From the NCBI RefSeq assembly GCF_003790525.1, contig NZ_CP033635.1: a stretch of DNA of 64,000 nt; one strand, written 5' to 3'. Source of the DNA: Escherichia coli (GTDB lineage: Bacteria > Pseudomonadota > Gammaproteobacteria > Enterobacterales > Enterobacteriaceae). The position numbers and the translations under genes are program-made. The notes beneath the pieces are model-generated. The model was not told the origin of the DNA, did not search any database, and saw nothing but the letters and a program-made list of their open reading frames with translations. Shown here piece by piece: positions 6,954 to 54,507 of the stretch; position 1 is the first letter of the stretch; the number at the start of each line of letters is the position of its first letter.

Positions 6954-7742
6954 ATGCAAACGATTATCCGTGTCGAGAAGCTCGCCAAAACCTTCAATCA
7001 GCATCAGGCGCTGCATGCGGTTGATCTGAACATTCATCACGGTGAAATGGTGGCTCTGCTTGGGCCGTCGGGTTCCGGCAAATCCACCCTTTTACGTCAC
7101 TTAAGCGGTTTGATTACCGGCGATAAATCTGCCGGTAGCCATATCGAGCTGCTGGGCCGCACAGTCCAGCGCGAAGGCCGCCTGGCCCGCGATATCCGCA
7201 AAAGCCGCGCCAACACCGGCTACATCTTCCAACAATTCAACCTGGTGAATCGCCTGAGCGTACTGGAGAACGTGCTGATTGGCGCGCTCGGCAGCACGCC
7301 GTTCTGGCGCACCTGTTTTAGCTGGTTCACCCGCGAGCAGAAACAGCGCGCGTTACAGGCGCTGACCCGCGTTGGCATGGTGCATTTTGCCCATCAGCGC
7401 GTTTCCACCCTCTCCGGCGGCCAGCAGCAGCGTGTGGCGATTGCCCGCGCGCTGATGCAGCAGGCGAAGGTGATTCTGGCCGATGAACCCATCGCCTCGC
7501 TGGACCCGGAATCGGCGCGCATCGTGATGGACACCCTGCGCGACATTAACCAGAACGACGGCATTACCGTGGTCGTCACGCTGCATCAGGTGGATTACGC
7601 CCTGCGCTACTGCGAACGCATCGTCGCCCTGCGCCAGGGGCACGTCTTCTACGACGGCAGCAGCCAACAGTTTGATAACGAACGTTTTGACCATCTCTAC
7701 CGCAGCATTAACCGCGTCGAAGAGAACGCGAAAGCTGCCTGA
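6954..7742 (+). CDS. phnC: Phosphonate ABC transporter ATP-binding protein PhnC
   Basis: ORF track; Walker [13 protein letters not shown] signature LSGGQQQR, Walker B ILADEP. Confidence 0.95.
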
Positions 7743-50150: not shown

Positions 50151-51500
50151 TTAGATAGCCCAGCCACCCGCATAGAAGGTCACCAGCGCCACGGCAATAA
50201 CGACCGTACCGATGTTCAACTTGCGCCATTCGCCGGAAACCAGACGACCAATCACCAGAGTCGCGAAGCCGATCATGATGCCTGTTACGATGTTACAGGT
50301 CAGCACGATGAATACCGCCGTAACCAGACCCGCCATCGCATCAACAAAATCAGCAAAGTCGATTTTCGCCACGTTGCTCAGCATCAGCAGGCCAACGTAC
50401 ATCAACGCCGGAGCCGTTGCGTACCCCGGAACGAGGTAAGAGAGCGGAGAGAGGAACAGAATCAGCAGGAACAGCACGCCAACGGTGATAGCCGTCAACC
50501 CGGTTTTACCGCCCGCCGCCGTACCCGCCGCAGACTCGATGTATACCGCTGCCGGAGCTGCACCCACCAGGCCAGAGAAAACGCTGCTCATGGAGTCAGT
50601 GGTCAGTGCTTTCCCGCCGTCGATGATCTGCCCGTCTTTATCCAGCAGGTTCGCCTGACCGGCGACGGCGCGGATAGTTCCGGTGGCATCAAATACTGCC
50701 GTCATCACCAGCGCCAGAACGCTTGGCAGGACTACAGGATTCAGCGCGCCCATAATATCCAGGCTGCCAATCAGTGAATTGCCGTTTTCATCGCTCAATG
50801 AAGGCATAGCGAAAACGCCGGAGAAATGGACGTTAGGATCGAAGATCAAACCGACAATTGAGATACCGATAATGGTCAGCAGAATGCCACCAGGGACTTT
50901 CAGTTTTTCCAGGCCGATGATCACCGCCAGACCTACCAGTGACATCATCACCGGAAAGGTCGTGAAATCACCCAGCGCAACGGGCAGACCATCAAGCGGG
51001 TTTTTAATCACCAGACCGACACCATTCGCAGCAATCAGCAGCAGGAACAGACCGATACCGATCCCCGTGCCGTGCGCCACACCGTGCGGCAAGTTGCGCA
51101 AAATCCAGCTACGGATACCCGTGGCAGAAATGACCGTAAACAGCACACCCATCAGGAACACGGCACCCAGCGCGACAGGTACGCTAATATGTTGCCCCAG
51201 CACCAGACTGAATGCGGTAAACGCCGTCAGGGAGATGGCGCAACCAATCGCCAACGGCAGATTAGCCCACAGACCCATCACGATAGAACCGAGTCCGGCA
51301 ACCAGACAGGTCGCAACGAAAACTGCCGCAGGCGGGAAGCCCGCTTTACCCAACATGCCTGGAACGACGATAACCGAGTAGACCATCGCCAGAAACGTTG
51401 TTAACCCGGCAACCACTTCCTGACGGACAGTGCTTCCACGTTGTGAAATTTTAAACCAGGCGTCGAGTGAACCGCCGGTACGCGCTGATGGCGTAGACAT
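50151..51500 (-). CDS. ghxP: Guanine/hypoxanthine permease GhxP (YjcD), 449 aa
   Basis: ORF track; NCS2/AzgA family; PurR-box-like site upstream. Confidence 0.92.
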
Positions 51501-51612
51501 AAGAAAACATCCCCTGAGAGTTTAATTTTCGTCAAGATGCGTGGCGGACAATCCCCTGCCAGCGAAACGTTATCTTCCTGCTCCAGGTTTGCGACAAATT
51601 GGTGCGTCGCAA

Positions 51613-51632
51613 AAAAGCAAACGTTTAGCTCC
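51613..51632 (-). promoter_or_regulatory. PurR-box-like operator upstream of ghxP
   Basis: AAGCAAACGTTTAGCT resembles the PurR consensus ACGCAAACGTTTTCTT; weaker copies near 51655 and 51755. Confidence 0.45.
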
Positions 51633-51899
51633 GCGCATACAAAACGGGTGGTAAAAAAGCAAACGATTATCCGGCGATCATAGCGGCTTTTTCAACCGAA
51701 GTTTGCTGCTTTTTTCTCTTTTATTGTCTTGACGATGAAAAACCAGGCAATTGATGCGCAAACGTTATCGTCGATGCGCAAGATTGCAGCGTTATCGAAC
51801 CGTATACCGTTCAGGATTGCGATAAAAAATCGCCTGAGATGACAAAAATATTGCGGCTAAAAAGTGTACTTTTACACTGGCGAAGAAACGCCGGTGACA

Positions 51900-52052
51900 T
51901 ACAATTAAAGCATCAACACCAACCGGAACCTCCACCACGTGCTCGAATGAGGTGTGTTGACGTCGGGGGAAACCCTCCTGTGTACCAGCGGGATAGAGAG
52001 AAAGACAAAGACCGGAAAACAAACTAAAGCGCCCTTGTGGCGCTTTAGTTTT
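51900..52052 (+). ncRNA. ryjA: Candidate small RNA RyjA convergent with soxR, ending at shared hairpin terminator
   Basis: K-12 has sRNA RyjA between soxR and ghxP; here a GC hairpin plus T-run (~52025-52052) reads as a terminator on the + strand; a TACAAT -10-like element near 51900; boundaries approximate. Confidence 0.3.
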
Positions 52053-52055
52053 GTT
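52023..52055. terminator. Hairpin terminator at soxR 3' end (shared with candidate ryjA)
   Basis: AAAGCGCCCTTGTGGCGCTTT hairpin with flanking T-run. Confidence 0.5.
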
Positions 52056-52509
52056 CATCTTCCAGCAAGCGTGCGCCTGTGCCTTCTTCTCCTAAGCGGT
52101 CGCCCGGGTTACGCAATGGGCAATCACTGCGCGAAAGGCAGCCACAACCAATACATCCGTCCAGTTCGTCACGCAGCGCCACTAAGGTATGAATGCGCCG
52201 ATCCAACTCTTCTCGCCATTGGGACGAAAGCTGTTTCCACTCTTTCGCACTTAATGTATGCCCTTCGGGCAACACGCCAAATGCTTCACGAATGGTCGCC
52301 AGCGGAATGCCAATACGCTGAGCAATTTTGATGATTGCGACATATCGCAACACATCACGTTTATATCGCCGCTGATTGCCACTATTACGGATACTGCTAA
52401 TCAACCCTTTGCTTTCATAGAAATGCAGCGCCGATACCGCCACACCGCTGCGTTTTGCCACTTCGCCGGGGGTTAGCAGCGCTTTAATGCGGGGTAATTT
52501 CTTTTCCAT
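52045..52509 (-). CDS. soxR: Redox-sensing MerR-family regulator SoxR, 154 aa
   Basis: ORF track; N-terminal HTH; C-terminal 2Fe-2S Cys cluster [12 protein letters not shown]. Confidence 0.97.
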
Positions 52510-52518
52510 AAATCGCTT

Positions 52519-52540
52519 TACCTCAAGTTAACTTGAGGAA
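52519..52540 (+). promoter_or_regulatory. SoxR operator within the soxS promoter
   Basis: Perfect palindrome CCTCAAGTTAACTTGAGG between soxR and soxS starts, followed by TATACT -10. Confidence 0.65.
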
Positions 52541-52594
52541 TTATACTCCCCAACAGATGAATTAACGAACTGAACACTGAAAAGAGGCAGATTT

Positions 52595-52918
52595 ATGTCC
52601 CATCAGAAAATTATTCAGGATCTTATCGCATGGATTGACGAGCATATTGACCAGCCGCTTAACATTGATGTCGTCGCAAAAAAATCAGGCTATTCAAAGT
52701 GGTACTTACAGCGGATGTTCCGCACGGTGACGCATCAGACACTTGGTGATTACATTCGCCAACGCCGCCTGTTGCTGGCCGCCGTTGAGTTGCGCACCAC
52801 CGAGCGTCCGATTTTTGATATCGCAATGGACCTGGGTTATGTCTCGCAGCAGACCTTCTCCCGCGTTTTCCGTCGGCAGTTTGATCGCACTCCAAGCGAT
52901 TATCGCCACCGCCTGTAG
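52595..52918 (+). CDS. soxS: AraC-family superoxide response regulator SoxS, 107 aa
   Basis: ORF track; divergent from soxR. Confidence 0.97.
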   Translation: MSHQKIIQDLIAWIDEHIDQPLNIDVVAKKSGYSKWYLQRMFRTVTHQTLGDYIRQRRLLLAAVELRTTERPIFDIAMDLGYVSQQTFSRVFRRQFDRTPSDYRHRL

Positions 52919-52920
52919 TT

Positions 52921-54507
52921 TTATTGCCCGCGCGTTAACTCCCGCGCGGGTAATTGCTCCATCCATTGCATAAACACCTGCGGCGGCATCGCCTTCGCAA
53001 AGAACCATCCCTGGCAATAGCGCACGCCGCGTTTGCGCAGCCAGTTAACCTGTTCCTCAGTTTCGACGCCTTCAGCGATCGTTTTTAACCCCAGACTGTG
53101 CGCCAGCTCGATGATGTGTTCCGCAATCAAATGACTGGTTTTATGGGTGGTCAGCGTCTCAACAAACGATTTATCGATTTTCAAAATATCGACATTCAAT
53201 GATTTAAGGTTATGCAAGTTAGAGTAGCCAATACCAAAATCATCAATTGCCACTTCGTAACCAGCCTGGCGGAAAGCCAGAATAATTGGTGTCATTTTGT
53301 CGACATCAAGAAATGCATGTTCAGTCACTTCAAATTTAATTTGCTGTGGACGCACCGCGTATTGCTCTGTTTTCTGATTGGTTCGCGCTATCAACCGTGA
53401 CGTATGAAAATCGGAGGCCGACAGGTTAATAGAAACATAGCGATCGGCATGTGTTGCCAGGTATGCGCCCAGATCGCGGAAGACATTATCAATAACATAA
53501 TCAGTTACCTGTCCGATCATCCCCTCCTTTTCTGCCAGCGGAATAAACTCTGCCGGATTCATTACTTGCCCCTGCTCACCAGGCCAACGTAACAATGCTT
53601 CAGCCCCGATACATTTTTCTGTTTTGATATCGATTATTGGCTGGTAATAAAGGCAAAGTTGATGTTTTTCGAGGGCGCGTTGCAATTTGCGTTTGGGAGA
53701 CAAATAGTTTTGTCGAATACGTAGCCAGAGTAATAGCAGAACAAGACTCCCCAAAATACCGGCGGGTAACGCAAAAATAAGATGATTATAAAAATGCGCT
53801 ATAAGACGTTGATATGAAGTCGCAACAATGGCCGCAATTGGGCGTTTTGTCGAATAAACTGTCGCATATAAATAGCCATTTCTTTGTACAGTTAAATCCT
53901 TCAAATGAATCAGTGGAGAAAACGTTGCTGCCGAGGCCTCGTTGCTTAACGAGAAAAAGGTTTTCGTTACCGTATCATATACACCCCATTGCAATGTCGG
54001 ATCATCAGACATCACTTCACTCCAGAAGAGAGGGTTGATGACCGCCACATAATTTCCCCGCTGCATATAGGTCATTTTATAGCCAGAGAAAAAAGGCGTA
54101 TCGCGGTAATAATAGATAGAAACGTTAGGTTCACGCTTATAATCGGCCGGTGCAATCGTATAGCCGTTTACAGGCGCTATCAGCGATGAGCATAAAAAAT
54201 GGTTATCACGGGCATAGATCAATTCATTAATATAAAGATAGCCACGAATAATATTCAACATTCGCTTTTGATGGGCTGGGGTGCAAACTTGCCCCTGATA
54301 GCGTTCAGCTGCATCGCTCACTAAATCTGCCTGACGAATGACCAGCTCAGATTTATCCAACGCCAGCTGAGCAAAGGTTCGGAGCTGATTATTCACTTCT
54401 GATTTTGCCCAAAAGAAGGCAATCCATAGCGACAGAATGATGGGAAAGAGAACTAAAAAGATAATGCCCGGCAACGCCAGTAATTGGTGTCGTGCACGAT
54501 GACTCAT
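52921..54507 (-). CDS. pdeC: c-di-GMP phosphodiesterase PdeC (YjcC; CSS-EAL), 528 aa
   Basis: ORF track 52921..54516 trimmed to [10 protein letters not shown] start; two TM helices flanking a periplasmic domain; C-terminal EAL domain. Confidence 0.9.

Follow-up and report, generated by a model that had tools for sequence, protein, structure and literature searches.

The intergenic spacer between ghxP and soxR in Escherichia coli is very probably composed of two independent and already described units placed back to back: the control region of ghxP, with its PurR operators, and the gene for the small RNA SraL/RyjA. The window, i.e., the whole stretch of DNA that was analyzed, is 64,000 nucleotides long, and the spacer occupies 51501..52044 of it (544 bp). 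It is flanked on one side by ghxP (50151..51500, minus strand), encoding a guanine/hypoxanthine transporter, and on the other side by soxR (52045..52509, minus strand), beyond which soxS is located. The window is inverted relative to E. coli MG1655, where the order is soxS, soxR, ryjA and ghxP; the length of 545 bp given in the initial annotation holds for MG1655 but not for this DNA. The spacer is 100% identical to that of E. coli SMS-3-5, and 5419 of 5426 complete E. coli genomes carry it with at least 80% coverage. Since the RefSeq annotation of SMS-3-5 has no feature within the spacer, it had been taken as unannotated. It does lack a CDS, as had been noticed, and its open reading frames are short and unconserved. 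Nevertheless, ryjA/sraL, the PurR-bound ryjA/yjcD region, repression of ghxP by PurR and the SraL terminator are all already annotated or published. The identities, matrix scores and conservation described below were computed in this work. For the comparison among species, a SraL-derived pattern applied to one genome per species gave 98 enterobacterial loci, and 74 of them, including the window and two E. coli reference loci, span from the ghxP start to the soxR end. It is also to be noted that a perfect inverted repeat, CCTCAAGTTAACTTGAGG, is present at 52519..52540 in the divergent soxR-soxS promoter region, and we take it to be the known site at which SoxR binds the soxS promoter.

The candidate small RNA in the spacer is RyjA/SraL. 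In a scan of 51000..53000 against Rfam 15 with E up to 1, the sraL family (RF01408) was matched over its full length, 1-142, with 153.3 bits, where the gathering score is 39 (E = 3.6e-36). This places a 141-nt gene at 51912..52052 on the plus strand, convergent with soxR, and MG1655 has the ncRNA ryjA (b4459, 4277926..4278066) at the homologous position; in both genomes, the gene overlaps the soxR 3′ end by 8 nt. A second Rfam match, with 23.7 bits and below threshold, arises from the terminator palindrome as seen from the other strand. In every one of the 98 enterobacterial loci recovered, sraL adjoins soxR. SraL/RyjA, a small RNA of 140 nt, was first found in E. coli in 2001. It lies on the opposite strand, between soxR and the gene that follows, and Northern and functional experiments in the literature showed a stable plus-strand RNA from this locus that accumulates in stationary phase, is directly dependent on RpoS in Salmonella, and represses tig (PMC3753932). 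The leader of rho is a second target of SraL (PMC6582626). Thus, expression, RpoS dependence and targets of this RNA have been shown in the literature, and the initial suggestion that the position fits RyjA is borne out by the Rfam match, the MG1655 gene and these experiments.

The upstream region of sraL also has features expected for such regulation. A predicted -10 element, TACAAT (51900..51905, plus strand), is followed by an A/T-rich TAAA and is of the sigma-S type, with a poor -35 around 51877..51883. When 96 distinct upstream sequences were stacked without gaps, a TAnAnT -10 and TAAA were kept, together with a weak CTGGCA-like -35 and an A-run further upstream, and this consensus fits a sigma-S promoter. 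Thus, SraL, an Hfq-binding RNA of 141 nt, would be made from an RpoS-type promoter towards soxR, and would act in trans on tig and rho mRNAs and not on its neighbors. Might the same strand encode a small protein, instead of or besides the small RNA? An ATG-initiated ORF of 62 codons (51839..52027, plus strand) does overlap most of SraL. However, the start codon of this ORF precedes the SraL 5′ end by 73 nt and is outside the SraL promoter, conservation between genera is lost upstream of about -60, and the RNA matches a structured covariance model over its full length. We therefore regard a protein product as extremely improbable.

At the downstream end of sraL, a G+C-rich hairpin of 13 pairs (6 G-C) with a 5-nt loop lies at 52021..52051, and the soxR stop codon, TAA (52045..52047, minus strand), is located within its 3′ arm. 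Its folding energy is -21.2 kcal/mol on the plus strand and -22.4 kcal/mol on the minus strand, z being about -5.5 on both, and none of 200 shuffles matched the stability on either strand. The hairpin is nearly invariant among the 98 enterobacterial loci. On the plus strand, where TTGTTCATCTT follows the stem, it was called by the terminator scan, which requires five U in eight, and it is the Rho-independent terminator of SraL. The initial annotation had gone further and supposed that this hairpin terminates transcripts of both strands. The part concerning the plus strand agrees with the scan, and termination in the soxR direction is a plausible reading of the sequence: the tail on the soxR strand, GUUUUCCG / UUUAGUUUGUUUUCC (GUUUUCC), is supplied by a conserved A-rich run upstream of the SraL stem, but its U-tract is shorter and weaker, so that it fails the scan. 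SraL ends at the hairpin that holds the soxR stop, and soxR transcripts most likely terminate there coming from the other side. Published Term-seq tables and one transcription start table, as searched, had no entry for this locus. The soxR stop lies within the hairpin in Escherichia and Citrobacter amalonaticus, and elsewhere mostly a few bases from the U-run of SraL. Some genera have extra sequence between the hairpin and the soxR stop, and in some Enterobacter this sequence is REP-like. Such a REP-like element, GCCGGGTGGCG...CTTACCCGGCCTAC, was seen between the SraL terminator and the soxR stop in five loci of Enterobacter and Lelliottia (L025, L037, L053, L079 and L085), and the hairpin is not directly shared with soxR in these species.

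Turning to the ghxP side, we built a log-odds matrix for PurR from 27 ChIP-chip motifs of Cho et al. (2011; PMC3159470), with the motif of this locus left out, and applied it to the full 64 kb on both strands. The two highest-ranking sites of the window are both in the spacer and on the minus strand: box A, AGCTAAACGTTTGCTT, at 51615..51630 with 19.5 bits, and box C, ACGATAACGTTTGCGC, at 51756..51771 with 18.6 bits. The published motifs score 12.1-25.2 bits on the same matrix, and the two boxes lie within this range rather than below a threshold. A weak box B, GGATAATCGTTTGCTT (51657..51672, minus strand), has 10.3-11 bits and rank 9, and overlaps the -10 element and the predicted start of ghxP; its 10.3 bits are below the weakest published motif, 12.1. 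A further weak PurR-like sequence, "box D", AAGATAACGTTTCGCT (51561..51576, minus strand), reaches only about 7 bits. The initial annotation had pointed to a good PurR box near 51615 together with weaker copies. The sequence it named, AAGCAAACGTTTAGCT, lies exactly at 51615..51630 and is box A, the top site in 64 kb, and weaker copies were found at 51657..51672 and 51561..51576. The published motif of this region is not the box which had been singled out but box C, at 51756..51771 on the minus strand, although box A scores as well and is equally conserved.

Could these boxes and the hairpin have arisen by chance in an A/T-rich intergenic region? It is true that terminator-like and promoter-like sites were no commoner than in shuffles when the whole 1.4-kb region was scanned. 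Yet the 544 bp have two PurR sites of at least 15 bits, and the remaining 63.5 kb have none, their best site reaching 12.5 bits; at 10 bits or more, the spacer has three sites against 0.07 expected. In addition, the boxes are conserved in 74 loci, the hairpin is conserved and has a z of -5.5, and occupancy by PurR has been published from ChIP (PMC3159470). Chance can thus be regarded as refuted. One matrix match elsewhere in the window, at 6954..6969 with 11 bits, was judged to be a chance match, and it coincides with the start codon of a plus-strand ORF of 262 codons. This ORF, whose first residues are MQTIIRVEK, is presumably the phosphonate transport gene phnC. As for the local sequence of the spacer, boxes A and B share a 19-nt context, AAAAAAGCAAACGNTTANC on the plus strand, 42 bp apart within 51603..51672, which has the look of a local direct repeat, and in the ghxP sense a run of six T comes after each of the two boxes.

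Binding of PurR to this region is an established fact. In the ChIP-chip study, the region "ryjA/yjcD" was occupied only with adenine, and the motif given for it was ACGATAACGTTTGCGC (PMC3159470). That ChIP-chip region spans the whole spacer and has a single motif assigned to it, so that the individual boxes are not resolved by it. Repression of yjcD/ghxP by PurR/adenine has also been reported (PMC3809563; PMC8376909). RegPrecise already has PurR sites for yjcD, and a weak box at -76, which is our box D, was newly predicted in the same work (PMC4576408); therefore, the picture of multiple boxes is not new in itself.

How are these boxes arranged around the promoter? A sigma-70 promoter of ghxP is predicted at 51666..51695 on the minus strand, with a -35 of TTGAAA (51695..51690), an 18-bp spacer and a -10 of GATAAT (51671..51666). 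It was the only promoter-like site found by the scan within 51300..52700, and both hexamers are invariant in 73 loci. From this, we infer that transcription starts near 51660, so that the 5′ UTR would measure about 160 nt. The Shine-Dalgarno sequence, AGGGGA (51510..51515, minus strand), lies 8 nt upstream of the ATG, in a CAGGGGA block invariant in 47 sequences. Relative to the predicted start, box B would lie at -12..+4, box A at +31..+46 and box C at -111..-96. In 74 loci, ranging from Escherichia to Klebsiella, Cedecea and Buttiauxella, all three are conserved with order and orientation unchanged: box A has 15.8-20.6 bits in 72 of 74 loci, box B is kept in 73 (10.3-13.4 bits in the other genera), and box C is present in all 74. 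The 73 promoter sequences, 71 of which are distinct, stack without a gap from -130 to +16 relative to the -10. Thus, the distance between B and C is exactly 99 bp in every locus that has both, including Mangrovibacter, even though the sequence from C to the -35 is largely variable. The distance between A and B, in contrast, is not fixed and lies between 42 and about 205 bp. Just upstream of box C, a TGTT-N7-TTGCGCA block (51774..51800, minus strand) is kept at fixed spacing in all genera, and TTGCGCA is directly repeated at box C, the copies being 23 bp apart. This block is not of PurR quality and has no recognizable promoter, and some other factor may bind there. A second promoter at box C was considered and rejected, as no acceptable -35/-10 pair was found in the block composed of TGTT-N7-TTGCGCA-N7-box C.

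It might be argued that the published box C is the sole genuine operator of PurR here, and that box A is simply an arm of an RNA helix and box B a -10 region. This would agree with the single motif given for the region (PMC3159470), with the participation of box A in helix P2 of the leader RNA described below, where it has a covarying partner, and with the low score of box B, 10.3 bits, below every published motif. On the other side, box A outscores box C, and its right half, TTTGC, is invariant though it is unpaired in the RNA model, which fits contact with a protein better than RNA pairing. In Shimwellia pseudoproteus (L011), box B has decayed to GGATAATCGCTGGCTT, yet a new box of 19.5 bits has appeared between B and C (spacer 116-273), which looks like operator turnover, and Erwinia typographi keeps boxes A and B but lacks C. 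We consider that box C being the sole operator is unlikely, and prefer the reading that all three boxes take part. In this arrangement, when purines are plentiful, PurR with hypoxanthine or guanine would bind three operators at ghxP, which is driven by the predicted promoter TTGAAA-N18-GATAAT. Box B, over the -10 and the start, would occlude RNA polymerase; box A, about 35 bp downstream, could act as a roadblock or help to load PurR onto the weak box B; and the strong box C would be placed about 100 bp upstream, 99 bp from box B. This assignment of a role to each box is a prediction from the sequence. For the fixed spacing between C and B, cooperative or looped binding of PurR may be hypothesized. 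PurR is a dimer and is not known to loop DNA.

The proximity of box C to SraL in E. coli raises another question: does PurR at box C regulate SraL? In E. coli, no more than about 148 bp separate box C from the SraL start downstream of it, and the label "ryjA/yjcD" in the ChIP-chip table names both genes. The answer seems to lie in the size of the spacer among genera. The spacer is 544-730 bp long in Escherichia, most Citrobacter, Kosakonia and Trabulsiella, and reaches about 1230-1840 bp in the other loci. The extra DNA of the long spacers is a glutathione S-transferase gene (Pfam GST_N) of 660 bp in the ghxP orientation, which corresponds to Salmonella STM4267 and ends just upstream of box C (for example, 1442-2104 in L103, 1506-2168 in L104 and 1342-2010 in L105). 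The gene is absent from Escherichia, most Citrobacter, Kosakonia and Trabulsiella; the stretch concerned in the window is 51772..51900. It is thus only where the spacer is short that box C and the SraL promoter are about 150 bp apart, which argues against control of SraL by PurR. In most genera, the GST gene puts box C more than 800 bp from sraL, whereas the 99 bp from C to the ghxP promoter is kept, and SraL is under the control of RpoS. Regulation of SraL by PurR is accordingly very improbable.

The transcribed leader of ghxP itself shows an unexpected feature. After initiation, the leader of about 160 nt would fold into a conserved RNA of four helices, whose structured core of 102 nt is at 51537..51638 on the minus strand. 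P1 is formed by 51638-51631 with 51544-51537; P2 by 51630-51620 with 51571-51561, i.e., the left part of box A with box D as its 3′ arm; the P3 hairpin by 51613-51605 with 51596-51588; and P4 by 51555-51552 with 51548-51545. When 47 short-form leaders were aligned by MAFFT, RNAalifold predicted the long-range helix of UAUGCGCGG with CCACGCAUA and a hairpin, with compensatory changes in both, and the four-helix model combines this prediction with the minimum-energy fold of the E. coli sequence. In the MAFFT alignment, pairing holds in 92.5% of the cells, and in 12 of the 30 pairs both partners have changed. On none of five measures did any of 500 column shuffles reach the observed value, and the covariation score is 0.223, compared with at most 0.105 when the partners are slid by 1-3 columns. 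In an alignment fitted to the model, which leans towards the model by its nature, 17 of the 30 pairs are compensatory. Frequent G-U pairs point to the sense strand of ghxP. A covariance model of the leader core gave full-length matches of 59-103 bits in all 23 long-form loci outside the training set, matches of about 30 bits (E about 2e-5) in Erwinia typographi and Mangrovibacter, and a single real match in the 64-kb window. The fold of the E. coli leader is no more stable than those of shuffles (z = -0.33); what supports the structure is covariation and not folding energy.

The covariation also bears on box D. Its median over 72 loci is -2.3 bits, so that it is not of PurR quality in most species, yet it covaries with box A (C-G 29, U-A 14 and U-G 4 in 47 sequences), and RNA pairing is therefore the better explanation of why it is conserved. 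In a distant locus, L105, a 17-bit PurR site is present at the box D position. It is to be noted that one helix of the leader, P2, is thus built from the PurR operator itself. No leader family was reported for 51000..53000 by the Rfam scan with E up to 1, where sraL was the only family reported. By blastn, the leader is single-copy per E. coli genome, and its covariance model found nothing upstream of ghxQ, xanQ, xanP, adeP and uacT in K-12. Neither an intrinsic terminator nor an obvious helix sequestering the Shine-Dalgarno sequence was seen in the leader. The P3 loop, CCCC, is complementary to the GGGG of the Shine-Dalgarno sequence, and in Mangrovibacter CCUC is opposite to GAGG; from this one case, an anti-Shine-Dalgarno role of the loop is just an idea. 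Two other possibilities for the leader were rejected. One is regulation by CsrA via the GGA motifs ACAGGGAG and CAGGGGAU: a CsrA CLIP-seq table gives ghxP without a peak, and in the CsrA data ghxP expression shifts along with other transporters of the PurR regulon, so that the effect of CsrA on ghxP is probably indirect. The other is a leader peptide from a 22-codon ORF, MRGAKRLLFCDAPICRKPGAGR, starting in P1; its ATG is not conserved, other genera having TAAGCG, TCAACG and TACACG, and the indels are not multiples of three.

What could this RNA do? We propose, rather tentatively, that the leader core is a cis-regulatory RNA not described before, which might sense a purine-related metabolite in the manner of a riboswitch or serve to dock a protein or a small RNA. 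A separate proposal, equally tentative, is that the 99 bp between C and B reflects cooperative or looped repression. In the literature searched, no description was found of the 99-bp operator spacing, of roles of the three conserved boxes or of a covariation-supported leader RNA. The features already published, re-identified here, serve as a check that such a sequence scan picks up real regulatory elements. If confirmed, a layout of three PurR operators with an invariant 99 bp would extend the view of how dimeric repressors of the LacI family act. Likewise, a regulatory leader in front of the main enterobacterial importer of guanine and hypoxanthine, if confirmed, would mean that purine salvage has a new point of control after transcription, so that uptake of these bases would be controlled at the RNA level on top of repression by PurR. 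Purine salvage is also relevant to sensitivity to purine analogues (PMC3809563).

Finally, the elements of this spacer can be compared with known systems. The small RNA belongs to the same family as known SraL/RyjA (RF01408, b4459), and has its length, its location convergent with soxR, its RpoS-type -10 and its Rho-independent terminator; the difference is in the neighbor on the promoter side, which is ghxP here and in E. coli generally, whereas in Salmonella and most genera the GST gene (STM4267) lies between. As in bidirectional terminators of convergent genes, one G+C-rich palindrome is bordered by an A-run and, at its other end, by a T-run, but here the soxR stop is inside the stem and the U-tract of the soxR strand is short. 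Among PurR operators, whose consensus is the 16-bp palindrome ACGNAAACGTTTGCNT, boxes A and C are near-palindromes of 16 bp with CG at the center and score like ChIP-validated motifs, and they are found at the promoter of a purine transporter gene repressed by PurR; binding of PurR within an ORF has been mentioned as well (PMC3159470). The usual operator is a single PurR box between -35 and -10, whereas here three conserved boxes are centered at about -104, -4 and +38, and box A, unlike the usual operator, sits in the transcribed leader. In this location, box A recalls the downstream operators of purR and purB. The fixed C-B spacing of 99 bp has no described counterpart among PurR operators. 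As for the leader, pbuG of Bacillus subtilis, a gene for a hypoxanthine/guanine permease, has an upstream guanine riboswitch. The two cases are alike in having a structured 5′ leader before a guanine/hypoxanthine permease gene that is under a purine repressor, but the ghxP leader has no match to the purine riboswitch in Rfam, and its predicted architecture is its own, with a long P2-P3 arm and a short P4 closed by P1.
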